Assembly (NCBI GenBank): GCA_903831655.1
Contig: CAIKYO010000183.1
Coordinates: 19 to 64,018 of the forward strand
Length of the DNA stretch: 64,000 nucleotides
Direction of reading: 5' to 3'
Source of the DNA: an uncultured Burkholderiales bacterium
Lineage (GTDB): Bacteria; Pseudomonadota; Gammaproteobacteria; Burkholderiales; Burkholderiaceae_C
In this document: in pieces, positions 19,916-34,311 of the stretch
Layout of the letters: each line of letters begins with the position of its first letter
Numbering within the stretch: the first letter of the stretch is position 1
Made by a program: the position numbers and the translations under genes
The notes under the pieces: model-generated
What the model was told of the DNA's origin: nothing
Seen by the model: the letters and a program-made list of their open reading frames with translations, nothing else
The model's database searches: none

Positions 19916-19951
19916 AAAGCCCAAAGACGCTTGCTCTTTGGGCTTTTTTTT
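19916..19951 (+). terminator. Rho-independent terminator after the LLM gene, insulating the virB8 operon
   Basis: 12-bp stem aaagcccaaaga/tctttgggcttt followed by a T run. Confidence 0.85.
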
Positions 19952-20056: not shown

Positions 20057-20758
20057 ATGTTTGAAAAGAAATTAGATGCTTCCCGTCAATCAGATGAATT
20101 GGGCCATGTACCCACTGTCATGGATCCCCATGAACGTCGCACCTACAGCGACGTGGTCATGGAGTCTCGTGTGCAAGCGGCCCGGTGGTTTTGCATTGCG
20201 GTGCTTGAGTCGTTGGTGATTTTGGCCTTGGGGGTGAGCATTGATTTGATGACCCCGTTGGTGAAAACGGTTCCCTACATGGTCAAGATCGACTCAGACT
20301 CTGGACAGGTGCTGGCCAAACCCGTTGCCGCTGAGCCCTTTTTGGTGGAGCCTCGGTTTGTGGCTGCAGAGGCCAGAAGTTTTGTACGCAACTTGATGTC
20401 GATCGATCCCTTTTTGAGTCGACGTGATCTGGAACGTGCCTCAACCAGGGTTGCAGGAAAAGCCAGTGCTGAGTTCAAAGAGTTCTTGCTCACGGAGCGA
20501 CCCTTTGAGCGCATGGCCAAAACACCTGGTCTGCTCAGAACCACAGAGATCAACAGCGCCGATGTTTCGCAAAAGAACATTGTCTTTGTATTTGCGCAAA
20601 CGAGAGAGCGAATCTCCATTGGGGCTCCGATCGTGACGAAGTGGAGATTCACGATTCACTACGTTTTGGACACCACCCTTGATCAAAAGGGATTTGAGGA
20701 AAATCCCCTTGGTTTTGTGATCACCCATTTTGAGCGCTTACAGGACAACGTGCAATGA
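20057..20758 (+). CDS. virB8: Type IV secretion inner membrane protein VirB8/TrbF
   Basis: Single TM, then VPYMVKIDSDSG; C-terminal ENPLGFVITHF signature. Confidence 0.88.
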   Translation: MFEKKLDASRQSDELGHVPTVMDPHERRTYSDVVMESRVQAARWFCIAVLESLVILALGVSIDLMTPLVKTVPYMVKIDSDSGQVLAKPVAAEPFLVEPRFVAAEARSFVRNLMSIDPFLSRRDLERASTRVAGKASAEFKEFLLTERPFERMAKTPGLLRTTEINSADVSQKNIVFVFAQTRERISIGAPIVTKWRFTIHYVLDTTLDQKGFEENPLGFVITHFERLQDNVQ

Positions 20759-21663
20759 AGCTTGAACACAGGGGCACTTTGTTGTGCATGATTTTTTGGG
20801 TGCAGTGTGCATGGGCTCAGCCCACCGTTGTGAGTGCGGACACTCGTTTGGTCACCTTTGAGTTCGATCCTGACAAAAGCTACCTGGTTCTCACCCGGCC
20901 CAAATCGGTCACCCACATCCAACTCGCACCCAACGAGATGATCAATACCGCTGTGGCGGGAGACACCTCTAACTTTAGTGTGGTCGTCAGCGCCAATCGA
21001 ACGAGCGTTTTGGTGCGTCCCAAGTACGAGGGGCTCACCACGAGTTTGACCCTGATCACCAATGCAAGAAGTTACCCCATGGTGCTGAGATCAACGCCCG
21101 AGGCCACGGGCAAGTGGTATCAAAGGGTGAATTGGCATTTCGAAGAAATGGAATTGAATGCATTGAGCCCTCTTGGCAACCCACACGATCTGAGCGCTTC
21201 CCTTCAAACCTCCTCTTTGAGCGCAGAGGGGATATTGAGGGCACGTCCATTGGGGCCCGAAGAGATGCAAGGGGAAGTTCATTCAAACGATGTCCTTGCC
21301 TCACTCCATCCAAACTCGACTGCTGAGGCGCAAACCTCATTGAGTCTTGATTTGGATCGACTCACACAGTTGAGGAGTCAGTACTCAGTAGAGGGCAGTG
21401 CAGATTTCAGGCCATTACAAGTCTTTGATGATGGACAAAGGATGTATTTGCACATGCCTGATGAGATGCAAAATTTCCCAGCTATTTTTGCGCTTGAAGA
21501 GGACCGCGCGCAGTTGATCAATTTCAGTCTTGCCAAGCGCTTTGTGGTGATTCAAGGTCTTCATTCAGAATTGTTACTGAAAAATGGCTCTTTGGAGGTC
21601 AAAGTCAAGCGCACACCCAGTAGCAATGGCTTTTGGGGAGGGCTCTTGCATGGAAACCGATGA
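20755..21663 (+). CDS. virB9: Type IV secretion outer membrane core protein VirB9/TrbG
   Basis: Signal peptide, DTRLVTFEFDP, T.I.LAP.E, GDT..F, TSLTLITNARSY; C-terminal PLQVFDDGQRMYL. Confidence 0.9.
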   Translation: MKLEHRGTLLCMIFWVQCAWAQPTVVSADTRLVTFEFDPDKSYLVLTRPKSVTHIQLAPNEMINTAVAGDTSNFSVVVSANRTSVLVRPKYEGLTTSLTLITNARSYPMVLRSTPEATGKWYQRVNWHFEEMELNALSPLGNPHDLSASLQTSSLSAEGILRARPLGPEEMQGEVHSNDVLASLHPNSTAEAQTSLSLDLDRLTQLRSQYSVEGSADFRPLQVFDDGQRMYLHMPDEMQNFPAIFALEEDRAQLINFSLAKRFVVIQGLHSELLLKNGSLEVKVKRTPSSNGFWGGLLHGNR

Positions 21664-23284
21664 CCTGATGAAACCTGTGGTTGAAAAAGCGCGGGGTGTT
21701 CCACCTAAAAAAGTGGTCCTTCCTGTCTTGGTCTTGATCTTTGTTGTGTTGATGATTTTGTCATTCATATCTTCTGAGAATGATGAGCCCATTCAAAGGG
21801 GGGATGATCTTGCCAAGAAAAATGAAATCAACCTGAGTGAGTCCGATCGCTTGCAGATGAAGGGTGCCCAAAAATTGGTGGGTGAGTCTTACGCATTAAG
21901 TGGACTGACGCCTGAGATTTTGTTGTCCTCACAGATCAATTCAACCCAGCCCCACGATGCCAACACGTCTCCTTCGGCCTTTGGTGTTTCCACGCCCATC
22001 AGCAAAGATTCAAAAAGCAATGGGTACTTGGCGCAAAGTCAATGGCCCACACCCATTCACAGTGGCTCGAATATTTCAAATCCAAAGGGACTACTCTCTC
22101 CTAATTCTGCAAGCTTGCCAGTAGGGCCCCTGATGGGACAGGCTTCGTTGCCTTTGCCCGTTGGTCAAGTTCAGTGGGAGGGGGGTGTTGGAGTTGATTC
22201 TAAAAATGATCTATTGGCCTTAAAAGCAGCCAAGGAGATTGAGGTGCTCAATTCCAAAATGGTCGTTGCTGACTTTGATGACCGCGTGTCATCCTCAATT
22301 GCGAACCCACTTGGGGTCACCTCACAAGCGAAAACTTCAAATGGGTTGAGCCAAGAGCAAGCCCAAACCTTGGCCAACTTAAGGCAAAAAGCCATGAATT
22401 GGTCTGCCTCCAACCCACAGGCATCATTGGGCATGGGCTCAGTCGGTGCAGGTGCTGGCGGGGGCAATGCCTCCAAAATGGGCTTGGAAAGCGACTTGCC
22501 TGGCGCTCATGAGGGTGCATTGGGTTCAGACAAGAGTGGCTTTCAAAAAGCCTCAGAGCTCCTCGATGCATGGAGCAATCCATTTCAAGACCCGGCTCTA
22601 GGCGGAAGCACTTCGAGGCCAAGTCCTTCACTTGCGAACAAAGACACTTTGTTTTTGAATGAGTTTGCAAACTCCACTGCATCCAAGGCGGGTTTGCGTC
22701 CTAGGCGTTTGGAGAGTGCAGGTTCGATCTTTGAGGGGAGTGTCATTCCTGCGGTCTTGGCAAGGGACATCGTCTCCGATTTGCCGGGCACCCTGACGGC
22801 CTTGGTTTCACAAGATGTCTACGATTCATTGACCTCGAGCTCGGTGCTCATTTGCAAGGGGGCGAAATTGGTCGGTCGCTACAACCACGACGTTCGAGTG
22901 GGTCAGTCTCGTTTGATGTTTGCTTTTACGAGACTCATCTTGAACAGTGGTGAGTCGTTTGATTTGACGGGCTTTGAGGGCTCTGATGCGTTGGGTCGAG
23001 CGGGGTATGAGGGTGATGTGAACAACCATTTCTTGAAAATCTATGGATCCTCATTGGCCATTGGAGTGCTTGCAGATCAGGTGACAAAACAATCGCAAGT
23101 TCCTCAAGGTACCTTTGCTCAACCCAGTGCAACGGGGCAAATCATGGTTCAGACCACAAGAGAGATTTTGAGTCGAACAAGGGACGTCTCTCCCACCATC
23201 ACCATTGAGCACGGCACTCCAATCAATGTGGAGGTTCGGCGAGATTTAATTTTCCCAAGTACCCAAAGAGCGAGGTGCACATGA
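21650..23284 (+). CDS. virB10: Type IV secretion core protein VirB10/TrbI
   Basis: N-terminal TM, long Ser/Pro/Gly linker, GSVIPAVL...SDLPG.LTA.VSQDVYDS, GRAG..GDVNNHF, PTITIEHGTPINVEVRRDL. Start moved to 21650 (GGAGG upstream). Confidence 0.92.
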   Translation: METDDLMKPVVEKARGVPPKKVVLPVLVLIFVVLMILSFISSENDEPIQRGDDLAKKNEINLSESDRLQMKGAQKLVGESYALSGLTPEILLSSQINSTQPHDANTSPSAFGVSTPISKDSKSNGYLAQSQWPTPIHSGSNISNPKGLLSPNSASLPVGPLMGQASLPLPVGQVQWEGGVGVDSKNDLLALKAAKEIEVLNSKMVVADFDDRVSSSIANPLGVTSQAKTSNGLSQEQAQTLANLRQKAMNWSASNPQASLGMGSVGAGAGGGNASKMGLESDLPGAHEGALGSDKSGFQKASELLDAWSNPFQDPALGGSTSRPSPSLANKDTLFLNEFANSTASKAGLRPRRLESAGSIFEGSVIPAVLARDIVSDLPGTLTALVSQDVYDSLTSSSVLICKGAKLVGRYNHDVRVGQSRLMFAFTRLILNSGESFDLTGFEGSDALGRAGYEGDVNNHFLKIYGSSLAIGVLADQVTKQSQVPQGTFAQPSATGQIMVQTTREILSRTRDVSPTITIEHGTPINVEVRRDLIFPSTQRARCT

Positions 23285-24645
23285 TCGCTTGGGCTGTGAA
23301 ACCCGTCTCACTTGGATGTTCAAGGACTTGTCGGCTCAGACTTTTTTGTGCACTGAGTTTGAGCTTGATGGTTCACCCCACTTGGGCGAAGGGTCTTGAG
23401 AGATTTCATTTTGATTACGCCATTTATGGCATTGGTCAACCCCAAAGCCTTCAAATCTTTGATGATGGGGTGCGCACCTTTTTAATGTGGAATGAATCCG
23501 TTGATGCTCCACGAATTGACGAGGGGAATTCAACGGGTGCATTCAAGCTCAACCGCGAGGGGGCCTATTGGGTCATGCAGGGTGTTCATTCTCATTTGGT
23601 ATTGCGTTTTGGTCAGGGTTACTTTCACGTATTGGCCACGGGTAGACAGCCCTTGAGTACCTCCACCTTGTCGGAGGTGCAATTGGATCTGAATGCCCAC
23701 ACCTCTCACAGGTGGGGTGCTTTCGCTGGCCATCCAGCCCAGCCCAGTGAGCCTTTTGATTTTCGCGCTGCAAAGCTTATTGAAGGGGACGTGACCTCCA
23801 ACTCTTATGCACAACCCATTCACGGTGATGAGTTGTCATGGAAGAAATTGGAAGACAACTCAAGCGATATTGGCCCTCAGACTTCCATGCAGAACTTGGA
23901 CAACAAGCTTCATGGGAGCAGTGAAAACATGGCATTGCTTGCCTTTCCAAAAGGCTCCAAGGTGCTCGGAGTGCAGGCCAAGGCGAGGTTGAGGGAATTG
24001 TTGAAGGACAAACGAGTCGGATTTGATCTGACGGTCGTGGGCTATGAGGACGATTCGTATCTTGAGGATCTGGGGCAAGAGCGGGCCGACGTGATTAAGC
24101 AATACCTCTTGGCTCAAGGTGTGAAACAAGAGCGGGTGAGGCTTCAAATTGAGCCCTTCACCGAAATGAGGGCAACCAAGGGTACAAAACCCCCGGGCGC
24201 CAAGATCATTTGGCACCGTTTGGAGGATTCAAGCAGCAAGGTTGAAAAAACCGCAAGCAAGAACATTGCACCATTTTCCGGGGGTGATCAACCGGTTGAC
24301 AAAGTTCAGCGCAAATTGGCTTTTGATATGGCTCAAAGTTCTTCATCCCCCAGAGTTGACATGGCTTTAAGTGTCCGACCTTCACTCTCTGTGATCAAAC
24401 AAGGCGAGTTGATTCACGAGGGTTTGGCACGTTTGGCCAAGTCCCACAATTGGACATTGATGTGGCGACTCAATTGGGATTGGAAGGCCGTGGCTGACAT
24501 TGATCTCTCCAAAGGAGGAGATGTGGTGCAAGAGGTCAGCCAAGTCATTGAGGCTCTAAGACTAGAGGGTCATGCTCTTCAGTTGAAGGTCTATGAGGAC
24601 AACCAAGTGATGGAGGTGGTGACGACAGAGGTGTTCAATGATTGA
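23281..24645 (+). CDS. PilL-like/TcpQ-domain protein with N-terminal VirB9-C-like and central OmpA-like domains
   Basis: FDYAIYG..PQSLQIFDDGVRTFL; AF.KGS..L...LTVVGYED....LGQERA..IKQYL...GV; C-terminal GELI...L.RLA...NWTLMW...DW...Y.DNQV.EV. ATGA overlap with virB10. Confidence 0.72.
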   Translation: MIAWAVKPVSLGCSRTCRLRLFCALSLSLMVHPTWAKGLERFHFDYAIYGIGQPQSLQIFDDGVRTFLMWNESVDAPRIDEGNSTGAFKLNREGAYWVMQGVHSHLVLRFGQGYFHVLATGRQPLSTSTLSEVQLDLNAHTSHRWGAFAGHPAQPSEPFDFRAAKLIEGDVTSNSYAQPIHGDELSWKKLEDNSSDIGPQTSMQNLDNKLHGSSENMALLAFPKGSKVLGVQAKARLRELLKDKRVGFDLTVVGYEDDSYLEDLGQERADVIKQYLLAQGVKQERVRLQIEPFTEMRATKGTKPPGAKIIWHRLEDSSSKVEKTASKNIAPFSGGDQPVDKVQRKLAFDMAQSSSSPRVDMALSVRPSLSVIKQGELIHEGLARLAKSHNWTLMWRLNWDWKAVADIDLSKGGDVVQEVSQVIEALRLEGHALQLKVYEDNQVMEVVTTEVFND

Positions 24646-26401
24646 TTCAAATCGCCATCAGCGGGGGGCTTGGGACAGGTTCCACCTTGTGTGTGTTGTG
24701 CAGACAATGTGTTTGATGTTTGCTTTGTGTGCGTGTTCATTTGAGGCCAATCGCCTGGGCATTGAAAAAGGGATTTCCCAAACACAGGGGTTCATGGACA
24801 CAGAACCTTCAAGGCCATCTCAACCCTCACCACCTGGGGGTGTGATGCACATCAAGGGTCCTAGGGTTTCGGGACAAGTGGTGAGACTTGACGAACAGGA
24901 GCTGCCTGATGTGTTTTCTCAAAAGGTTCGATTTTTGAGCAAAGGGGCTTCCTCCATGGCTCAGATCACAGCGGATATCTCCAAGCTCATCGGAGTTCCG
25001 ATCAAGGCGAGCGAATTGCTCAATCAAGGGTTGGGCCACGATGATGCCATGGGTTCTCGCCTGGCCAGTCCTCAATCATCGATGTCATGGGGCCCGAGTG
25101 TTGGGGTGGAAATTGATTTTGAGGGCAGTGCTCAAAGTTTGATGGATCTCTTGGCTGGGCAAAACAATGTGTCTTGGCGCTTCAACCCTCAAAGTGCGGC
25201 GGTGGAGTTTTACCGCTTTGAGACCAAAGCATTTTCGGTCTTTGTACCGGGGGGGCAAAAAAACATCAACGCAAGCATTTCACTCTCCGGTGTGAGTGAT
25301 GGAGGAGGAGCGGGAAATTCAACTGGAGCTGCAAGCGCAGCGGCTGGGACGGGCGCGGGCAACGTATCGGTCAACCAAGCGATGAGTGTCAACCCTTGGG
25401 TATCGATCATGCAAGGGGTGAGATCGATTTTGAACGACACCAACCAAAGTTTGAGTTCATCACTGGGATTGCAAGGACAAATGGGCATGGGCGCAAGCAG
25501 TGGAGGAGGGCTGCCTGCAAGCCTTGGCGCTAACGCCATTGGGGGGACCACTTTGAGTGCCAGTGGCGCACAAGCCGTAGCCAATCCTGAATTGGGACTG
25601 ATCACCGTCACCGCAAGACCCCAGGCGTTGGAGCGTGTTCAGCAGTATGTGCGTGCCATCAATGAGCGCTTTGCAAAAAACGTCCTGATTGATGTCAAGA
25701 TTTACAGTTTCTCGTTGGATGAACAAAAGTCTTTGGGATTTGGTTTGAACATGCTCTACACCAAACTGAACCAAATGAATGCAAACATTGTGAGTCCTCA
25801 GCCCTTGCAGGCGGGAGTGGACACACCAGGTATTTTGACTTTGGCTGCACCGACAGGCTCTGGCGCTTGGAGTGGTTCGAACTTTGTGGCTCAAGCGCTC
25901 AGTCAGTTGGGTCGCGTCGCTTTGCTCAAGCAAGCCCAAGTGTTGGCCATCAATGGACAACCCTCTCCGGTGCAAGTCGCCAACGAAATCAGTTTCATCG
26001 CATCCAGTGCGACCACATTGGCGCCCAACGTGGGCTCAATTACCACGCAGACCACGGGTACGAAGGTGGTTGGATTCACGGCCAATTTTTTACCCTTGAT
26101 TTTGGGAGATGGACGCATTTTGTTGTCCTATCAAATCCAAATTTCTTCATTGGCAAGCGCACTGACACCCAACGCTCAAGGGATTCAAACCCCCAATGTG
26201 GCTACCCAGTCTTTGCAGCAACAAGCGTTCTTGGAGGATGGTCAATCGATTGTGTTGTTTGGATACGATGAGGAGCGAAACGCTCAAGCAAAGGCCTTGA
26301 GCGTAGCGGGTCTCTCCAACTCAAGCAGCATGAACCGAGACATGGTGGTCATTGTTTTGCAAGTCAACACAGGAGCTAGGCGTGTCACACCTCCGATTTG
26401 A
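24638..26401 (+). CDS. pilN: Type IVb pilus secretin, R64 PilN family (lipoprotein)
   Basis: Lipobox ALCAC; ET.AFSV, Gly/Ser-rich N2 region, GLITVTARPQALERV..YV..IN, NGQPSP.QV, GFTANFLP.I...GRILL, Q..L..GQS.VL.G. Confidence 0.88.
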   Translation: MIDSNRHQRGAWDRFHLVCVVQTMCLMFALCACSFEANRLGIEKGISQTQGFMDTEPSRPSQPSPPGGVMHIKGPRVSGQVVRLDEQELPDVFSQKVRFLSKGASSMAQITADISKLIGVPIKASELLNQGLGHDDAMGSRLASPQSSMSWGPSVGVEIDFEGSAQSLMDLLAGQNNVSWRFNPQSAAVEFYRFETKAFSVFVPGGQKNINASISLSGVSDGGGAGNSTGAASAAAGTGAGNVSVNQAMSVNPWVSIMQGVRSILNDTNQSLSSSLGLQGQMGMGASSGGGLPASLGANAIGGTTLSASGAQAVANPELGLITVTARPQALERVQQYVRAINERFAKNVLIDVKIYSFSLDEQKSLGFGLNMLYTKLNQMNANIVSPQPLQAGVDTPGILTLAAPTGSGAWSGSNFVAQALSQLGRVALLKQAQVLAINGQPSPVQVANEISFIASSATTLAPNVGSITTQTTGTKVVGFTANFLPLILGDGRILLSYQIQISSLASALTPNAQGIQTPNVATQSLQQQAFLEDGQSIVLFGYDEERNAQAKALSVAGLSNSSSMNRDMVVIVLQVNTGARRVTPPI

Positions 26402-26948
26402 TCCCAAAGTGGTGTGTGGGTGCTGGGCTTTGCTCTTGGCGCCTGCGCTTTGGGCACAAGAAACGAACCCATCAGTGGGTGTGGTCAACGATTTGGATGA
26501 TCAAAAGGCCGTGATGCAAGCTCAAATTGAAATCATGAGAAAGGAGCTGGATTTGAACAGCACACTCAAGTCATTGGCAATGTCTGTTTATCAGCCCTTA
26601 CCCAGTGTGCTGAGTCTATCCATCAGAGGTTCTCAGGCACAGGTGAGGTTGCTATTCGCCTCTGGCGTGAGTGCGAGCTACAAAACTGGAGATCTTGTGC
26701 CAGGAGGTTTCAAAATCTCCGAAATCAAAGAGCGAGAGGTATTTGTTGAGATAAGGCGAAATTCAAAAGCCGTTCGGGTGGCTTTGGAATTTGCAATCAG
26801 CCCAGCCTCACCCTCCCTGTCCCCGTCCTTTGTCTCCGCTGGAGTTGGAGCGATCATCCCACCTGAGCTCATGCCTAAACTACCGCATGTCCCCATGCCC
26901 GCGGTCAGCGCTCCTAGAGCACTGCCTTCTTTAGGGGCAAAACCATGA
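26382..26948 (+). CDS. pilP: Type IVb pilus biogenesis protein PilP
   Basis: Signal peptide, coiled coil, LPSVLSL...G....V.L....G......GD.VPGG..I.EI. GTG start at 26382 follows AGGAG. Confidence 0.72.
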   Translation: MSHLRFDPKVVCGCWALLLAPALWAQETNPSVGVVNDLDDQKAVMQAQIEIMRKELDLNSTLKSLAMSVYQPLPSVLSLSIRGSQAQVRLLFASGVSASYKTGDLVPGGFKISEIKEREVFVEIRRNSKAVRVALEFAISPASPSLSPSFVSAGVGAIIPPELMPKLPHVPMPAVSAPRALPSLGAKP

Positions 26949-28447
26949 TTGTCAAAGTTGCAGACTTGCACTTTGCCTTTGGTATGAAATGGATCATTTC
27001 TCATGACAAAAAAGAAACTCGATTGATCAAGGCTCAGTTCAATCCAAAGGGCTCTTTGTTTGTGTGTCAAGAAAAAATTAAGGCCGAGTTTGCTCCCAAC
27101 GGTCAGGCTTGGCTTGGGGTCTACACTTTGAGTTCAAAATCTCGCGCACTCCGGGAGCCAAAACCAATCTATTGCGCCGCACTTTGCCTGGCTACTTTTG
27201 TGCGAGACGCCATACTTGTTCAGCCCCTCATGGAGGGTTGCGTTTGGTTTTGTGTGATCAAAGATGGATTGCCCGTGGTGGGATTTGATCTGTTGCTAAG
27301 CCCTGATGAGATTGAGTCCCATGTCGACTATTGTCAAAGGGTGTTCATGACAACTGCCGAAGGGCTTCAACCGGACACGCCCTTGATCTCCAGGTCCTTT
27401 GAGGTGATTGAAGCACTGGAGCTGCTTAGGGGCATAGGAACTGAAAAATCTAAAGATCGTGCTTTAGCTAAAAGTATCAAGGCCGCAAGGCTCAGACCAT
27501 TGGAGCAAATGGGGTGGAGAAAGTTCAGGCCCATTGTGCTGACATTGAGTGCGGGTGTCGTTTTGAGCGTACTTTGTGGCGTTGCTGCGGGTGAAGGCTT
27601 CTTTGCGATCTTCAATGGCACTGTGGATTTTGGCGGGTTGTCCAGCTCAACTCCGGTGCGAAGCGCAGTGGACAAGGTGCACACTTGGGTGAGTACTGCA
27701 TTTTTTCCTGAACACGCAAGGCAAGAGAGCATTCGCCTACAAAGCTTGGCGCTACAAAGGCAAGAGTCGAATATGGCGGGAACACGAGAGAGAGCGCAGG
27801 CTCAATTGAATGCGAGACAACGCCAATACGAGCTCAATGAAGGTCGATTCTTGGATCAACAAAATCTGTTGCGATCAAAAGTTCAAGCAATCGAGCTTTG
27901 GCAGGAATTCAACCGCGTGCGACAAAGTGTGCCTATCTCATTGAAGGGGCGTGAGATGCGCCACATCAAATGTGTGCTTACACAATGTGATTTGAATGGG
28001 TCCACAGGAATCGGCGAAATGGACAGGGCCTTGCGCCAGGTGAGTTTGAATGTGCACGGGTCGCCAATGGAACTTGGAAGCCAGGATTCGGCTGAGGGCC
28101 TCTTGGAGTCCTTGAAAATAAATTTTGACCCTCTGCCCGTGAATTGGAGTACAGCCTCTCCTAATCGGTATTTAATGCAGACGCTTGAGAGCGCAGTGCC
28201 CTTGGTTGCTGAGACCCGAGCAAGTAGAGGGGGTGAGCCGATCAGAGAGCACAAATGGTTGCTTGCCAAAGCAGGCGAATGGTCACTGAACTTGAGTGGC
28301 GAGACGATGCTTGTGCAAGGTGATGAGTTTGTCAAACGCATGGCCCATTGGCCCTTGGAGCTCTCTGAGGTGAACTACCGAAAAAATGAGTCTTTGACTT
28401 TCAAAGGCAGGTGGTTCTATTTTCCAAAAGTGATGGGTTCGCCATGA
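26945..28447 (+). CDS. pilO: Type IVb pilus assembly protein PilO (PilO2-like)
   Basis: FAFGMKW N-terminus, VWFCVIKDGLPVVGFD, central TM, periplasmic coiled coil; position between pilP and the ATPase. Confidence 0.7.
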   Translation: MIVKVADLHFAFGMKWIISHDKKETRLIKAQFNPKGSLFVCQEKIKAEFAPNGQAWLGVYTLSSKSRALREPKPIYCAALCLATFVRDAILVQPLMEGCVWFCVIKDGLPVVGFDLLLSPDEIESHVDYCQRVFMTTAEGLQPDTPLISRSFEVIEALELLRGIGTEKSKDRALAKSIKAARLRPLEQMGWRKFRPIVLTLSAGVVLSVLCGVAAGEGFFAIFNGTVDFGGLSSSTPVRSAVDKVHTWVSTAFFPEHARQESIRLQSLALQRQESNMAGTRERAQAQLNARQRQYELNEGRFLDQQNLLRSKVQAIELWQEFNRVRQSVPISLKGREMRHIKCVLTQCDLNGSTGIGEMDRALRQVSLNVHGSPMELGSQDSAEGLLESLKINFDPLPVNWSTASPNRYLMQTLESAVPLVAETRASRGGEPIREHKWLLAKAGEWSLNLSGETMLVQGDEFVKRMAHWPLELSEVNYRKNESLTFKGRWFYFPKVMGSP

Positions 28448-30264
28448 GTCTAATAGGTCCCACAGATGAGTTCGTGATCACTGACATCACGCAACTCCCG
28501 GCGGGTGAGTATTTGAGTTTTAAGCAAGCTCAATTACCTGCTGCGTTCAGAAAGCATTTTGCATTGCTCCTCTCTCACATCCATTCGCAATTGGAATTAA
28601 GCCCTCAAGAGGATGTCAGCAAACACCAGAATTACAATTTATTGCTGTTGGTCAATGAGGCACATTTTGCAAGTCACGAGTACTTTGATTTGATACATCG
28701 TTTGGACCCTTCGCTTGAGCGGGAGATACAGGGTGGGGGCTCACTGAAGTCAAACTTGAACCGAGATTTGCCGGGTATGCGTTTGGTTCAAGTCATGAAG
28801 GTGACCCATGAGATCATCAAAAGCATACACGCAGCCAATGTCTCCTTACCCCATTGGGTTGAGACACATGTGGAGACCTCCTCATGGGCGTTGATTGACA
28901 GGGCCATCGATCAGCGCGCGTCTGACTTGCACATCGAGACGCGAGGCTCATATGCACAGGTCTACTTTCGAATTGATGGTGAGCGTCGCCCACAGCCCAG
29001 CATTTCATCCAAGAGTGCCATGGATATGTGCAATGTGCTGTACGGAGTCCATGCCGATGCGGACAACAAAGGGGTCACATGGGATGAGAAAACGGTGAAG
29101 GATGCAGTGATTGAGCATCGATCTGCTTTGGGTAAGCACGTTCAGTTAAGGCTCTCAAGCGCTCCGATTCATCCGAGTGGAAATTTTCATGTCGTCATTC
29201 GACTCTTGGTAATGGATGTCCACACCCTCAAGCCCCTGGCTGAAATGGGTTACTCCAAAGAGCAATTGGAGCGCATTGAGGACATGTTGATCGGCTCCAT
29301 CGGTGTGGTCTTTGTGGTGGGACCCACCAACAGCGGCAAGTCCACTTCCTTGCAATCTCTGATTGCTCGCATGTTTGAACAAAAGGGACGTGACATCAAA
29401 GTGATCACAGTAGAGAGACCCGTTGAGTATTTGATCGCATCTGCATGCCAAATGGGGGTTCCTGAGGGTAGGCGCGATTTGATGAATCAACAAACGGGTT
29501 CCCATTACAGCGCTTTTGTTGCCGCAACTTTGAGGCAAGACCCCGATGTGGTGATGCTAGGGGAGGTCAACGATGCGGACAGTGCCAACAACATCATGCA
29601 ATTGGTCTTGTCGGGTCGAAAGACTTTGGCTACTTTGCACGTGTATGAGGCCTTTGGGGTCTTTGCTCGTCTGTGCGAGCTAGGTGTCCCGAAATCGGTG
29701 CTTCTCATGAAGAGGTTCATCAGTGGCATTGTTTTTCAAAGGCTGGTGCCTTTGTTGTGCGCTGGGTGTGCGTTATCTCTTCATGATGAGGGGGCGGTTG
29801 AGCTCATGAGTGCTCAATTACTTGGGCGAGTACTTGCGCTGAGTGGTGAGGACTCAAGCCGGGTTCGACTTCGGGGTGGAGGTTGTCAGGCTTGTTCGGG
29901 CACAGGGTTGGCTGGGCGTACCCTGTGTGCAGAGATTTTGGTGCCAGATGCGTGTTTTTTGTCCTTGATGAATGCAGGACTGGAGGACCAGGCCAGGGCA
30001 CATGGGTTAAAGGGTTGTGGTGCTCTCGAAACCCAGACCGGGGGTTCAGCCATGTCGCATGCCATACAAAAGATGCGACTCGGACTCTTGGATCCCCGAG
30101 ACATTGAGAGGTGGCTGGGGCGCTTGGAGTTAGAGTTCATTGAATCAGAGCAAGCATCCAGGCCAACTGCACAAGCTCTAAGTCCTTTGAAGGCGAAAAG
30201 GACTGTTCCACGAAAAGAAAAGCCACTTGTGGCCCAAGCTCTTGAAAAGTTGGAGCCCGATTGA
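28444..30264 (+). CDS. pilQ: Pilus extension ATPase (GspE/PilB/PilQ family)
   Basis: ASDLHIE, GPTNSGKST Walker A, TVERPVEY, LRQDPDVVMLGEV, LATLH, CxxC...CxxC zinc motif; start moved to the ATGA overlap. Confidence 0.93.
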   Translation: MSLIGPTDEFVITDITQLPAGEYLSFKQAQLPAAFRKHFALLLSHIHSQLELSPQEDVSKHQNYNLLLLVNEAHFASHEYFDLIHRLDPSLEREIQGGGSLKSNLNRDLPGMRLVQVMKVTHEIIKSIHAANVSLPHWVETHVETSSWALIDRAIDQRASDLHIETRGSYAQVYFRIDGERRPQPSISSKSAMDMCNVLYGVHADADNKGVTWDEKTVKDAVIEHRSALGKHVQLRLSSAPIHPSGNFHVVIRLLVMDVHTLKPLAEMGYSKEQLERIEDMLIGSIGVVFVVGPTNSGKSTSLQSLIARMFEQKGRDIKVITVERPVEYLIASACQMGVPEGRRDLMNQQTGSHYSAFVAATLRQDPDVVMLGEVNDADSANNIMQLVLSGRKTLATLHVYEAFGVFARLCELGVPKSVLLMKRFISGIVFQRLVPLLCAGCALSLHDEGAVELMSAQLLGRVLALSGEDSSRVRLRGGGCQACSGTGLAGRTLCAEILVPDACFLSLMNAGLEDQARAHGLKGCGALETQTGGSAMSHAIQKMRLGLLDPRDIERWLGRLELEFIESEQASRPTAQALSPLKAKRTVPRKEKPLVAQALEKLEPD

Positions 30265-31436
30265 TAAAGCCTCGAGCAAGTGCATTGAGCCTGAGTTTGT
30301 GGGACCGTTTTTGGATCACGCCAGCGCACCGAGAGCAATGGTATTTATCGCTGGCAAAGTTGGCCCGTGATGGGTTACCCTTGTTTGACTCGATACAAGG
30401 CATGCAGCGTGAAATGAGTTTGACCCGTCACCCGTTGGCGCCACTCTTGAGTTGTGTGCTCCTTGGGCTGAGGGGGGAGGCGAGGGAGGATCTATCTGGG
30501 TGGGGTCCTTTCCCACTTGATTTGATGAGCCCATCCAAAGCCAGTGATCCCAAGGGCAGGGGTGCGGATTTTCAACGTGGGCTGAGTGCTCGTGCGACCC
30601 TTGCGAGCCAACTGCAGGGGCTCGTGCCAGACAATGAGGCGATGCTGATTCAAGCTGGGGACGTGAGCGGCAAGCTTGCCTTGGGACTGGAGAATGCGGC
30701 CAAGCTCTTAGGTGCAAAGCAAGCGCTATATTTGACTTTGCAAGGCGCATTGATCAAACCACTCACGTATTTTGTCAGCTTGTGTGCTTTGTTGCTTTAC
30801 TTCTCATGGGTAATTTTTCCTCAGTTTGAGGCCGTGCTCCCCAAAGCCAATTGGTCAAGTGGCATGCTTGAGTTGGCTTGGGTGGCCGATCATGTGGTCA
30901 CGTTGATCTTGGTTTTTGTCGGAAACTTGGGTCTCCTCATGGCCTGGTTTTACTGGGCTTTGCCGGGACTCATTCACCCTTGGCGTGTGGTGTTGGATCG
31001 CCATTGTTTCCCCTTCAATGTTTACGCAACCCTGAGTGGATCTTATTTTCTAACGGCTTTGAGTGGATTCATTGATGCTGGGTTGCCGTTCTCCAATGCC
31101 GTTCAATCCATTCGTGCTTGTGCAAATCCCTATCTAACCCATCAGTGTGATCTCTTGTTGATGTCCCTCAAAAGAGGTCAAACACCCGCGCGAGCACTCA
31201 CCCAGATCTCCATCATCGCTCGCCCCTTTCATTGGTTGATATTGGTATATGCAATGTCCTTGGATTCATCTAAAGCGTATGTGGAGATGGCCCATCAAAT
31301 GCGCACCCAGGTTGAAAAATTGATGAAACTGGTATTTGGAGATGTGTTGGGTGGGTTGATGCTTGCTGGTGTTGGAGCTGCAGTCTATTGGATCTACGCC
31401 CAAATGATGACTGGCATGACCACAGTGTCTTTGTGA
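30261..31436 (+). CDS. pilR: Pilus inner membrane platform protein (GspF/PilC/PilR family)
   Basis: L...ARDGLPL.DS, E.MLI.AG..SG.L..GL, L.GFI.AG.PF..A; TM helices. Confidence 0.87.
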   Translation: MIKPRASALSLSLWDRFWITPAHREQWYLSLAKLARDGLPLFDSIQGMQREMSLTRHPLAPLLSCVLLGLRGEAREDLSGWGPFPLDLMSPSKASDPKGRGADFQRGLSARATLASQLQGLVPDNEAMLIQAGDVSGKLALGLENAAKLLGAKQALYLTLQGALIKPLTYFVSLCALLLYFSWVIFPQFEAVLPKANWSSGMLELAWVADHVVTLILVFVGNLGLLMAWFYWALPGLIHPWRVVLDRHCFPFNVYATLSGSYFLTALSGFIDAGLPFSNAVQSIRACANPYLTHQCDLLLMSLKRGQTPARALTQISIIARPFHWLILVYAMSLDSSKAYVEMAHQMRTQVEKLMKLVFGDVLGGLMLAGVGAAVYWIYAQMMTGMTTVSL

Positions 31437-31574
31437 TCTCTTGCCCGCTTGATCGATTCAAGGTGAGGGGTGTCTTCAATGGAGCAAAAAAAAGATCACT
31501 TAGGCTTGTTTTTTGAGAGCTTGAGGATGTGTATCGCAACCTACATTGAATCCTTCAATTTGAAGGATTAAAAA

Positions 31575-32180
31575 ATGAACACAGTACAAGTCTCAATGCA
31601 ATCCGAGAAATATACAAATGCAAGAGGATTCTCATTGATCGAGTTGATCGTCGTGTTGGCCATCATTGCGGCCAGTGTTGCGCTCATTTTGTCAAGGCAA
31701 AGCAGAGCCACAGAGAGCAGCAAAGCAAGCGACATGGTGCAGTCAATCACTTACTTGGCATCCAAGGTACAAAACTTTTATGCCAGCTCGGGCTCCTACG
31801 CAGGCTTGAATCCAAAGGTTGTGGGGCAAATGTCTTTGGTCAATCAACCCTTGAAGTGGGATGGGTCTTCCAGTATTTTGGATGCCTGGAACAATCCTTT
31901 GGGGGTGAGTGGAAATCAAACGGGGGCCTCACCAACCTTTGCCATCACCATTGGTGGAAGTGTCAATCCATTGAACAATGAGAGTTGTACCGCTATGGCG
32001 ACTGCTTTGGCCAGTGCAGCTGATGTTGTGGTGGTGGGGAGCACCAGCATCAATGTGACTGCTGGATTGGTTCCAGTCAGTGGCAATGTTTATAAAAGCA
32101 GTGCGGGTAGTTTGGATTTGACTCAATTGGCAACGGGATGCTCCTCGGGCAATCCGGTCATTGCGCTTCAATTGCATTGA
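31575..32180 (+). CDS. pilS: Major type IVb prepilin, PilS-like
   Basis: Class III signal ARG|FSLIELIVVLAII; 183-aa mature chain with YAGL, D.WNN and two C-terminal-half Cys; strong RBS (GAAGGA) after a 138-nt gap. Confidence 0.88.
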   Translation: MNTVQVSMQSEKYTNARGFSLIELIVVLAIIAASVALILSRQSRATESSKASDMVQSITYLASKVQNFYASSGSYAGLNPKVVGQMSLVNQPLKWDGSSSILDAWNNPLGVSGNQTGASPTFAITIGGSVNPLNNESCTAMATALASAADVVVVGSTSINVTAGLVPVSGNVYKSSAGSLDLTQLATGCSSGNPVIALQLH

Positions 32181-32185
32181 GCCCA

Positions 32186-33130
32186 ATGGAGAAAGGCATT
32201 CAATTCATTGCGTTTGTATGGGCCTGGATGGTTGTCAATGCCATGGCAACCTCCATTGTGGTGACACCCGGGAGCACAGCAAGTTACTTGTATTTCCCAC
32301 CAGCGAGTTCGAGCGCGAGCTCTGGCTCGAGCTCCAGCTCCTTTGGTGGCAACAACTCCACTGTAACTTTGGCCGGTGTTGGAGGCGTGAGTGTCACCAA
32401 GTCTGGGGCTTACACGTCTTACTCCATTGCGCAGAGTTCAACGGGGAGTGTTTGTGGTGTCGGTTGCACTTTGGCTCAATTCAATTCAGGCGCGGGTTTT
32501 GTGACCTTGACCACTTCTAGGCCAAGCACTTTCACAGATTCGAGTGGTACGGCACTGAACAATTGCACAGCTGTTCTCAGTTGCACGACCTGGATCAATA
32601 CCAACTCAAACGTGGCGTTGCGCGTGTACCCCAATTGCTTTGAAGGAGATTACCGATTGAATTACGCAAGCACTTGCACGACCGCACTGATACCGGTTGG
32701 GATCAATCAGTTCTATGCCACCAATCTCGTGGCGATGGGGACCTATGGTGGGGTGTATGCGGGAAATGTGTTGGTCTATCAGGTCACCCAAGCCTTGGCT
32801 GCTTGGGAGTCGCTCAACGACTTGTATGCACAAACCTACGCCGTGGTGTCTACGGGGAGTTCAGGCATCCAAAACAAAGCGAACATCTTGAACGTCTACA
32901 CCCATGGCTCCATCGAAGACACTTGTTCTGGTTTGGGCACGGGTTCGTATTTGCCCAGTGTGAACGAACTGGGTCAGTTTGTTGGTACCTTGCCGTTGAT
33001 GTTTTATTGGACATCTAACGATTCCAATCAAATTTATTCCATAGCCGAAGCTTCAAGCTCTGCTATTTCTACATTTCAAAAAACTACTCCTCTAGCTATT
33101 GTTTGTACACGCTATTACCCTCTTAACTGA
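32186..33130 (+). CDS. Secreted Ser/Thr/Gly-rich, 8-Cys protein; adhesin candidate with a C-type-lectin-like/DUF1566-like C-terminus
   Basis: Sec signal ending AMA|T; C-terminal DTCSGLGTGSYLPSVNEL...YWTS...IVCTR. Start moved to 32186, 5 nt after pilS. Confidence 0.6.
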   Translation: MEKGIQFIAFVWAWMVVNAMATSIVVTPGSTASYLYFPPASSSASSGSSSSSFGGNNSTVTLAGVGGVSVTKSGAYTSYSIAQSSTGSVCGVGCTLAQFNSGAGFVTLTTSRPSTFTDSSGTALNNCTAVLSCTTWINTNSNVALRVYPNCFEGDYRLNYASTCTTALIPVGINQFYATNLVAMGTYGGVYAGNVLVYQVTQALAAWESLNDLYAQTYAVVSTGSSGIQNKANILNVYTHGSIEDTCSGLGTGSYLPSVNELGQFVGTLPLMFYWTSNDSNQIYSIAEASSSAISTFQKTTPLAIVCTRYYPLN

Positions 33131-33142
33131 TCAATTATCAAC

Positions 33143-33601
33143 ATGCAACTCTGGATATTGGCTTTTGGATTGTTGATCGGTTGGGTTGGGATGCAGCGCG
33201 ATTTGAACTGGGTGATGTCAAGGCAAGCGCAAAAGGTGAGTTTGGCTGCAAGTGAGGTTGATGACTACCGTTTGTTCCTTTTTGCAGCCAGCCAGTACTT
33301 GGCCAATTTCAATGGTGGGGCCGGGGAGTTAACTTGGGCTGACCTCTCGAACTCAGATGCCATGCCCGCGGCTTTGAGAGCACACGTGTATTCGTCTTTA
33401 TGGCGAGTGGTCGTCTTGCCAGATGGGTCTTGGGTGGTTTGCTCTCCAATGGGTGAGCGAGCACTTGGTATGCAGTCTCAGTTCATGAGTGCTCACGGCC
33501 TGACTTGGTTGCCCATCGACCCATCCCTTAAAAATCAAGCCACTGGAGCTCAATTGCGTTACATGGATCACTCAAGCGAAAGCCAAGGATTGTGCAGATG
33601 A
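33143..33601 (+). CDS. pilM: Type IVb pilus biogenesis protein PilM
   Basis: N-terminal hydrophobic anchor, A.QYL..F.GG.GEL.W.DL; size and position typical of pilM next to pilV. Confidence 0.62.
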   Translation: MQLWILAFGLLIGWVGMQRDLNWVMSRQAQKVSLAASEVDDYRLFLFAASQYLANFNGGAGELTWADLSNSDAMPAALRAHVYSSLWRVVVLPDGSWVVCSPMGERALGMQSQFMSAHGLTWLPIDPSLKNQATGAQLRYMDHSSESQGLCR

Positions 33602-34311
33602 TGCGCTCCTCAGCGTATGTACCCGAGCTTCAATTGCGTCGAATTGCTCGCAACCATGGATTTGCAATGATGGAGTTGATGATTGGCTTATCCATGTTGG
33701 CGCTCCTTGTCTTAGGGGGTGTTGAAATGGGTGCGCGTGTGCAGCGTCTGAACGCTGCTCACGAGGACGCCGAAGCAATGGCCTCATTCTCTCAATTGGT
33801 AGGGCAGTATTGGGTTGCCAATCGAGCGGCCATAGAGCTTGTGATGTCTGGGCAGTCTCAAGTGGGCAGTGTCTATTGTGCAACCAATGTCTCCCTTGAT
33901 GGACTCAGCCTCACCCCCAGCTTTGATACCCTTAAACACACCTGTGTGATTGACTCAACGCTTTTGCAAGCGAAAGGCCTTTGGCCTCAGAGCATGCCCA
34001 CACAAAGGGCCAATAATCGGTGGGTGGCGGCATTTAGGCAAATCACAAATTTGAATGAGGTCACTGGAGCGGACGAGGTTTTTATGTTCATGTCCCCCTT
34101 GCAAAACGGTCAATTGATGACCCAAGGCGAAGTGAAGATCAATCTCCCTTTGCAAGCCTATGTGGAGCAGTTTCAAGCCAGCATGTCCGAGCTCGGTGGC
34201 ATGGGTGGCTTTGTGCCGCCCTTGCAAACCGTTGGGAACTGTTTGTACACCAGTGCGGTCCAACAAGCTTGTGGGCGAGAGTGGCGTGTTGCGATCTCGG
34301 ATTTTTTGTGA
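33592..34311 (+). CDS. Minor prepilin, PilV/Shufflon_N-like (short, no variable C-terminal domain)
   Basis: Class III signal NHG|FAMMELMIGL; A.QYW..N, L..KGLWP, GGMGGFV. Confidence 0.65.
   Translation: MQMMRSSAYVPELQLRRIARNHGFAMMELMIGLSMLALLVLGGVEMGARVQRLNAAHEDAEAMASFSQLVGQYWVANRAAIELVMSGQSQVGSVYCATNVSLDGLSLTPSFDTLKHTCVIDSTLLQAKGLWPQSMPTQRANNRWVAAFRQITNLNEVTGADEVFMFMSPLQNGQLMTQGEVKINLPLQAYVEQFQASMSELGGMGGFVPPLQTVGNCLYTSAVQQACGREWRVAISDFL

Follow-up and report, generated by a model that had tools for sequence, protein, structure and literature searches.

A single gene of an uncultured Burkholderiales bacterium encodes a three-domain protein at the seam between type IV secretion genes and type IVb pilus genes, and this protein belongs to an unnamed family. 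The gene lies in a 64,000-nucleotide stretch of contig CAIKYO010000183.1 (assembly GCA_903831655.1), which we refer to as the window, between virB10 of a type IV secretion system (T4SS) core and pilN, which encodes the secretin of a type IVb pilus (T4bP). Its product, here called the junction protein, joins a domain resembling the C-terminal domain (CTD) of VirB9, an OmpA-like domain and a TcpQ/BfpG-type domain. We define the VirB9CTD-OmpA-TcpQ junction family by this domain order, by the signature NSYATPxxGDxxxW and by the position between virB10 and pilN, all three of which are found in the window protein. The TcpQ/BfpG domain family is already known; the three-domain family is uncharacterized, and databases list it under generic names only ("TcpQ domain-containing protein" or "TrbG/VirB9 family"). 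A literature search returned no description of the three-domain family and no treatment of VirB9 and TcpQ together, and a search on TcpQ and T4SS yielded work on BfpB and BfpG as its only relevant match (PMC12531336).

The junction protein is predicted with confidence to fold into three domains, with disordered linkers between them and a Sec signal peptide at the N terminus. A first-pass annotation had read the N-terminal block as a mirror of the C-terminal domain of the adjacent VirB9, followed by a central OmpA-like pattern and a C-terminal TcpQ-like domain, and each of these readings was borne out. In BLASTP, residues 39–111, the very block it had quoted, align with residues 203–278 of the neighboring VirB9 (34% identity, E = 4e-7). 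Pfam placed TcpQ (PF10671) at residues 372–447 of the single protein, with 38.8 bits (cut-off 27). Among 1.84 billion representatives, a profile search returned 284 relatives, 62 of them with the N-terminal domain. CagX was recovered in all 62 of these distant homologs, TcpQ in 61 and OmpA, at E ≤ 1e-3, in 29; all 62 matched the NCBIfam VirB9 model, and none matched a dedicated family model. Searched against solved structures, the family profile matched BfpG (9u5s_R, E = 3.3e-13), the CTD of TrwF/VirB9 (residues 142–240 of 7o3j_B, E = 1.3e-10), OmpA C-terminal domains (E = 1.5e-9) and the N0 domain of Xanthomonas VirB7 (E about 2e-6). The first-pass annotation had noted that TcpQ/N0-type domains occur both in type IVb pilus accessory proteins and in Xanthomonas VirB7.

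Structure prediction delineates the same three units. An AlphaFold2 model built on the 62-homolog alignment gave a predicted local distance difference test (pLDDT) score above 90 at residues 41–140, 212–315 and 371–450, the last scoring 90–97 with alternating helices and strands, and predicted disorder at residues 143–211 and 326–364. Foldseek matched the model to VirB9 CTDs (6gyb_B, 7o3j_B, 2n01_B) and to OmpA-like domains with probability 1.00; the top match, an OmpA-like domain, was 4erh_A (E = 5e-6), and 4g4w gave a TM-score of 0.71. Both the CagX-like and the TcpQ domain were recovered; their absence was one of two outcomes that the first-pass annotation had named as refuting it. Across the 62 sequences, D257 of the OmpA-like domain is conserved in at least 90% and R268 is invariant; we take these two residues to be the Asp/Arg pair that binds diaminopimelate, and hence peptidoglycan, in OmpA-like domains. 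The signal peptide consists of basic residues followed by LFCALSLSLMVHPTWA, with KG after the predicted cleavage site, and a lipobox scan found no lipobox in it (...LSLSLMVHPTWA before KG).

The family is strictly confined to the boundary between virB10 and pilN. Roughly half of the 62 relatives match its signature exactly. We searched with a degenerate DNA version of the signature, blind to gene context, in one genome per prokaryotic species (GTDB representatives); of the 45 stretches returned, 26 are true family members. These loci come nearly all from Burkholderiales (Ramlibacter, Polaromonas, Hydrogenophaga, Rhodoferax, Caenimonas, Paraburkholderia, Burkholderia and Sideroxydans), with one from Fluviicoccus. 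All 23 loci that show the upstream gene have virB10 there, with virB9 and virB8 before it; all 18 that show the downstream side have pilN, then pilO/P/Q/R. Most loci carry a small stand-alone TcpQ gene between the junction gene and pilN. The relatives' genomes are mostly metagenome-assembled genomes. The family is rare: among about 800 representative genomes, family-wide and class-wide searches turned up the complete three-domain protein in just 2, and their other matches were mostly plain VirB9 or OmpA proteins. The signature itself is conserved inside an otherwise fast-evolving, disordered linker and looks like a docking peptide.

On large plasmids, the junction gene occupies the same position in complete systems. 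In plasmid 1 of Polaromonas sp. JS666, a conjugative plasmid of mating-pair formation type T (MPF_T), T4SS and pil genes form one co-directional run: traD, virB11, virB2, virB3, virB4, a virB6-like gene, an AAA ATPase gene, a transglycosylase gene, virB8, virB9 and virB10, then the junction gene, a small TcpQ gene, pilN, pilO2, pilP, pilQ, pilR, a pilin gene, pilM and pilV. Both the junction gene and its small neighbor are annotated there as "TcpQ domain-containing protein". The same arrangement is found on a Hydrogenophaga sp. PBL-H3 plasmid, on a Ralstonia insidiosa plasmid and in one metagenome-assembled genome. Complete composite systems (L022, L054, L102, L106 and many of L059–L100) also share a conserved AAA ATPase gene of about 650–700 codons between virB6 and virB8, and most of them have the small stand-alone TcpQ gene before pilN. 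Junction proteins of Hydrogenophaga carry two TcpQ domains, and one from Ralstonia has no detectable TcpQ domain. A hypothetical gene before virB8 in Polaromonas was considered as a VirB7 equivalent and rejected, as it has neither a signal peptide nor a lipobox.

By sequence, the junction protein falls within the TcpQ/BfpG domain family (PF10671; structure 9u5s). It shares non-lipoprotein status with BfpG, and its gene likewise stands immediately before that of a lipoprotein-type T4bP secretin. BfpG and TcpQ are small, single-domain proteins (PMC12531336), whereas the 454 residues of the junction protein include added VirB9-CTD-like and OmpA-like domains. By beta-strand addition, BfpG builds a 17:17 hoop on the LG region at the N terminus of BfpB, a lipoprotein secretin whose assembly requires BfpG; the TcpQ/BfpG domain is homologous to the N0 domain of Xanthomonas VirB7 (PMC12531336). 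Xanthomonas citri VirB7 (6gyb, 3ov5, 2l4w) has in common with the junction protein an N0-like domain associated with a T4SS. It is, however, a lipoprotein whose N0 domain is C-terminal and which has a VirB9-binding peptide, whereas the junction protein lacks a lipobox, has an extra OmpA-like domain and carries a VirB9-like domain instead of the peptide. Judged from its signal peptide, which is not lipidated, the junction protein is not a Xanthomonas-type VirB7. The cluster has no classical VirB7: the earlier remark that no separate virB7 is visible held in a lipobox scan of the cluster's + strand, which showed no small VirB7-like lipoprotein open reading frame (ORF), and none was visible in two complete systems.

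Similar comparisons separate the junction protein from VirB9 and PilL. In the R388, pKM101 and Xanthomonas structures, the C-terminal sandwich of VirB9 forms its O-layer part and touches both VirB7 and the VirB10 CTD, and the N-terminal domain of the junction protein is homologous to this sandwich (VirB9/TrbG/CagX; PF03524, TIGR02781). The junction protein nevertheless lacks the VirB9 N-terminal domain, does not reach the family cut-off by itself (TIGR02781, 24 bits against 217.7) and falls outside the VirB9 orthologs in the domain tree; sequence comparison indicates that it is no VirB9 ortholog. PilL of the IncI1 plasmid R64 (NC_005014) and of integrative and conjugative elements (ICE-type; PAPI-1/ICEclc-like) occupies the same place upstream of pilN in R64-like pil operons and shares the C-terminal TcpQ domain. 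R64 PilL, an annotated lipoprotein, has the TcpQ domain only, and an ICE-type PilL combines a DotD-like domain with TcpQ; neither has CagX or OmpA. The NCBIfam PilL model (conj_PilL) did not match the junction protein, which, by its sequence, is not a PilL. The three-domain architecture is therefore not standard in T4bP loci without virB genes, the second outcome by which the first-pass annotation said it would be refuted: those compared encode the two PilL forms and single-domain BfpG/TcpQ proteins. With the C-terminal domains of OmpA, Pal and MotB (PF00691), the central domain shares the fold and the Asp/Arg pair.

The first-pass annotation had also placed the gene exactly at a T4SS-pilus junction. 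Its position between virB10 and pilN stands; no complete T4SS adjoins it, as the secretion part of the window consists of virB8, virB9 and virB10 only. VirB4 was not found in the genome assembly, which is 99.99% complete by markers in 463 contigs, and tblastn queries covering all genes from three complete systems found no VirB2, VirB3, VirB4 or coupling protein in the genome. The sole "VirB11" match there proved to be CpaF of a Tad/Flp pilus locus outside the window and was set aside; that locus (contig C211:12243-19617, 41.6% G+C) encodes the CpaF-like ATPase, TadB/C-like proteins, a secretin and a prepilin peptidase. The same chromosomal site and gene order (Bug, hydrolase, monooxygenase, then virB8-virB9-virB10-junction gene-pilN-pilP-pilO and onward) recur in a related uncultured Burkholderiales species (locus L101) and on two metagenome contigs (L103 and L104). 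Since the L103 allele is the L101 allele, L101/L103 and L104 count as two further lineages, and the recurrence of the reduced form at one site shows that it is not an assembly accident. VirB4 and TrbL were not found in the genome that holds L101. A further contig (L021) carries virB10, the junction gene and pilN in that order, and the junction-protein profile had no match in the three same-genus genomes searched. In the tree, the window VirB9 nests within the VirB9 clade of complete composite systems, so the reduced cluster derives from one of these.

Purifying selection maintains the reduced cluster. We compared the window with L101 (Table 1). Every cluster reading frame remains intact across three or more lineages whose synonymous divergence (dS) is about 1 or more, and because dS is about 1 in flanking and cluster genes alike, the cluster and its flanks diverged together. 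The cluster evolves faster than the housekeeping genes that flank it (52–91% against 91–98% protein identity), and its G+C content (50.6%) is like that of the window (50.9%). Taken together, the shared dS, the intact frames and the window-like G+C indicate that the reduced cluster is old, vertically inherited and under purifying selection.

Table 1. Divergence between the window and locus L101 (dS by the Nei-Gojobori method, NG86; dN, nonsynonymous divergence)
Gene product	Protein identity	dS	dN/dS
Flanking genes	91-98%	about 1.0-1.1	0.02-0.05
VirB8	91%	1.08	0.05
VirB9	69%	0.83	0.26
VirB10	70%	1.25	0.17
Junction protein	56%	1.40	0.25
PilN	75%	1.01	0.15
PilP	66%	1.13	0.19
PilO (N-terminal part)	52%	1.38	0.26

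Within the junction protein, constraint follows the folded domains. Among the reduced lineages, the VirB9-like domain retains 67–78% identity (dN 0.14–0.21), the TcpQ domain 74–80% (dN 0.11–0.17) and the OmpA-like domain 56–67%, whereas the disordered linkers have drifted near-neutrally to 17–44% (dN 0.4–1.2). The VirB9-like domain is thus under the same degree of constraint as the TcpQ domain, and this speaks for its having a separate partner. A domain tree has a branch (Shimodaira-Hasegawa-like approximate likelihood-ratio test, SH-aLRT, 94) that sets all 46 bona fide VirB9 CTDs apart from the junction N-terminal domains, a coarse split that is the only safe one at about 80 residues and 85 columns. 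On this tree, the N-terminal domain is an old VirB9 paralog, and a recent duplication of the neighboring virB9 is rejected. The C-terminal domain has a different history. In a tree that is likewise built on a short domain, the TcpQ domain of the window lineage clusters with TcpQ proteins of the stand-alone or PilL type (support 100/99), and an approximately unbiased (AU) test rejects a single clade of all junction C-terminal domains (p 0.0066, for a group named after the tree had been inspected). The reduced loci have no small tcpQ gene, which together with this grouping suggests that the present gene arose by fusion of an ancestral linker with the downstream tcpQ.

These observations make it plausible that the junction protein physically couples the VirB9/VirB10 ring to the PilN secretin, as the first-pass annotation had proposed. 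The strict confinement between virB10 and pilN and the constraint on the VirB9-like domain both favor such a role. The protein would be exported by the Sec pathway and remain in the periplasm, non-lipidated, as beads on a string: VirB9-CTD paralog, motif-bearing linker, OmpA-like domain, second linker and N0-like domain. Its C-terminal domain would bind the lipoprotein secretin PilN near the N terminus, in the way that BfpG encircles BfpB; no other protein of the locus has a TcpQ domain, and a secretin-partner role is likely. The OmpA-like domain would anchor the assembly to peptidoglycan, which we consider somewhat more probable than not. The N-terminal sandwich, perhaps with the linker motif, may engage the VirB9/VirB10 outer-membrane complex encoded just upstream; of the three contacts this docking is the most tentative, and we rate it slightly below an even chance. 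The T4SS-type core and the pilus secretin would thereby be tethered side by side, with long disordered linkers tolerating a symmetry mismatch between the two rings. For the tether between VirB9/VirB10 core and PilN as a whole, we judge the chances to be about evenly balanced. A more specific proposal, that a freshwater-type Burkholderiales lineage has kept VirB8-VirB9-VirB10 without VirB4 as a working part of the type IVb pilus machine, stapled to PilN by a junction protein that is itself a fusion of linker and small tcpQ, is possible and distinctly more speculative; the result would be a hybrid envelope machine.

Several points weigh against this tether. In this single protein, two of the three domains fall below their Pfam cut-offs: the C-terminal part of CagX/VirB9 at residues 40–113 scored 25 bits (E = 2e-5) against 34.2, the match covering only profile positions 114–191 of 198, and OmpA (PF00691) at residues 222–289 scored 25.2 bits (E = 2.2e-5) against 27.2. 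The loop after the Asp of the OmpA-like domain is 4 residues shorter than usual, which leaves peptidoglycan binding less than certain. For the signature motif, disorder is predicted and no partner is known. A T4SS core has 14-fold symmetry and a secretin roughly 17-fold, with no obvious symmetry in common. The extra small TcpQ protein encoded before pilN in complete systems suggests that the junction TcpQ domain may have a different task there; by analogy with Xanthomonas VirB7, it may form an N0 ring around the T4SS core. Finally, the genome is fragmented and a contig outside the window ends in a 122-residue, TrbL/VirB6-like C-terminal fragment (C369:12347-12712, in a stretch of 32% G+C) with 59% identity to VirB6 of the closest complete composite system, so a second, unassembled T4SS is possible in this genome. 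The fragment may belong to an unassembled mobile element; no such fragment is present in the relative G799 or in three same-genus genomes.

Three other accounts would dispense with the tether. The strongest of them, although still unlikely in our view, confines the protein to the pilus, as a secretin partner and peptidoglycan anchor equivalent to PilL, TcpQ or BfpG; the VirB9-like sandwich would then be a structural or oligomerization module, for example in a periplasmic ring under PilN, making no contact with VirB9 or VirB10. TcpQ is indeed the sole domain above its Pfam cut-off, the window locus encodes no other TcpQ-domain protein, R64 PilL shows that N-terminal extensions are common on TcpQ proteins, and the TcpQ domain groups with stand-alone and PilL-type proteins rather than with the junction C-terminal domains of complete systems, as the AU test found. 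What this account leaves unexplained is the N-terminal domain: it never occurs in TcpQ proteins of pilus loci without virB genes (R64 PilL, ICE-type PilL), it is always encoded directly after virB10, and it is conserved to the same degree as the TcpQ domain. The retention of virB8-10 under selection alongside the pilus genes also speaks against a pilus-only role. The opposite assignment, to the secretion system alone, is more improbable. Here the junction protein would be an accessory subunit of the outer-membrane core that stands in for the missing VirB7, its N0-like domain at the core periphery, with no role at PilN. The lack of a VirB7-like lipoprotein ORF in the cluster and in the two complete systems fits this idea, as do the homology of the TcpQ domain to Xanthomonas VirB7 N0 (PMC12531336) and the separate small TcpQ of complete systems, which could serve PilN. 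The junction protein is not a lipoprotein, however, and its TcpQ domain is far closer to BfpG than to VirB7 (E = 3.3e-13 against about 2e-6). The window lineage, moreover, has no other TcpQ protein for its lipoprotein secretin and has kept the junction protein despite losing VirB4 and the rest of the T4SS.

Decay is the least credible account, and we consider it very improbable. Under it, the cluster would be the remnant of an integrated conjugative element, with the junction gene and virB8-10 on their way to becoming pseudogenes. The truncation of the T4SS part to three genes and the far greater divergence of cluster proteins than of flanking proteins between close relatives are what decay would predict. 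It is contradicted by ORFs intact across at least three lineages at such dS, by dN/dS of 0.05–0.26 in the cluster, by folded domains that are conserved while linkers drift, and by a G+C content equal to that of the window.

If the junction protein does act as a tether, it bears on how two envelope machines are arranged. On IncI-type conjugative plasmids, a type IVb "thin" pilus holds mating cells together and a separate T4SS moves the DNA; we know of no account of how the two are coordinated in space. The junction family offers the first concrete candidate for a protein that physically ties a VirB-type T4SS core to a T4bP secretin, and on large Burkholderiales plasmids its gene lies precisely where the two parts of one composite operon meet. 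The reduced chromosomal form, with VirB8-10, the junction protein and the pilus under purifying selection, makes the coupling idea testable: if VirB8-10 matter for piliation although VirB4 is missing, the pilus has taken over a T4SS core for its own use. The maintenance under selection of a VirB4-less VirB8-10 and T4bP cluster is the more unusual point. The family also indicates that TcpQ/BfpG domains are modular and have been exchanged between stand-alone and fused forms.

In the window, the junction gene is embedded in a compact cluster (Table 2). Its start codon shares bases with the stop codon of virB10 (ATGA), and its last 8 nucleotides run into pilN, whose ATG is at 24638; overlaps of this kind usually indicate translational coupling inside an operon. 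The whole cluster spans 20057–34311 and consists of virB8, virB9, virB10, the junction gene, pilN, pilP, pilO, pilQ, pilR, pilS and three more ORFs. A strong terminator at 19916–19946 ends the monooxygenase gene upstream, and the window genes outside the cluster are those of ordinary metabolism.

Table 2. Features of the junction protein and its gene cluster in the window (aa, residues of the junction protein unless a gene is named)
Feature	Coordinates	Strand	Basis or remark
Junction-protein coding sequence (P0001, 454 aa)	23281..24645	+	ORF as listed in the first-pass annotation
Predicted Sec-type signal peptide, aa 1-37, cleavage after TWA	23281..23391	+	Read from the sequence; AlphaFold2 helix at 15-28
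VirB9 CTD-like beta-sandwich and following helix, aa 38-140	23392..23700	+	Pfam, BLASTP, profile, AlphaFold2, Foldseek
Family signature motif NSYAQPIHGDELSW, aa 174-187	23800..23841	+	Within disordered linker; candidate docking peptide
OmpA-like domain, aa 212-315	23914..24225	+	Pfam, profile, AlphaFold2, Foldseek
TcpQ/BfpG-type N0-like domain, aa 368-454	24382..24642	+	Pfam, profile, AlphaFold2
virB8	20057..20758	+	First cluster gene, after the terminator
virB9, full two-domain CagX/VirB9	20755..21663	+	
virB10, TrbI domain at aa 382-557 of VirB10	21584..23284	+	
pilN, lipoprotein-type type IVb pilus secretin	24638..26401	+	TIGR02520, 186 bits
pilP, pilO, pilQ (ATPase), pilR (platform), pilS (major pilin)	26352..32180	+	

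The distal part of the cluster is less readily assigned. The ORFs at 32138–33130, 33143–33601 and 33592–34311, after pilS, have no Pfam match, and the one at the pilM position does not match the PilM model, a model that R64 PilM does match. Neither a prepilin peptidase gene nor a PilT-like gene is present in the cluster. PilN carries a lipobox in the window and in relatives; that of the window protein (24638–24740) reads L-C-A-C, unusual at position -2, and those of the relatives are canonical LAGC or LSGC.

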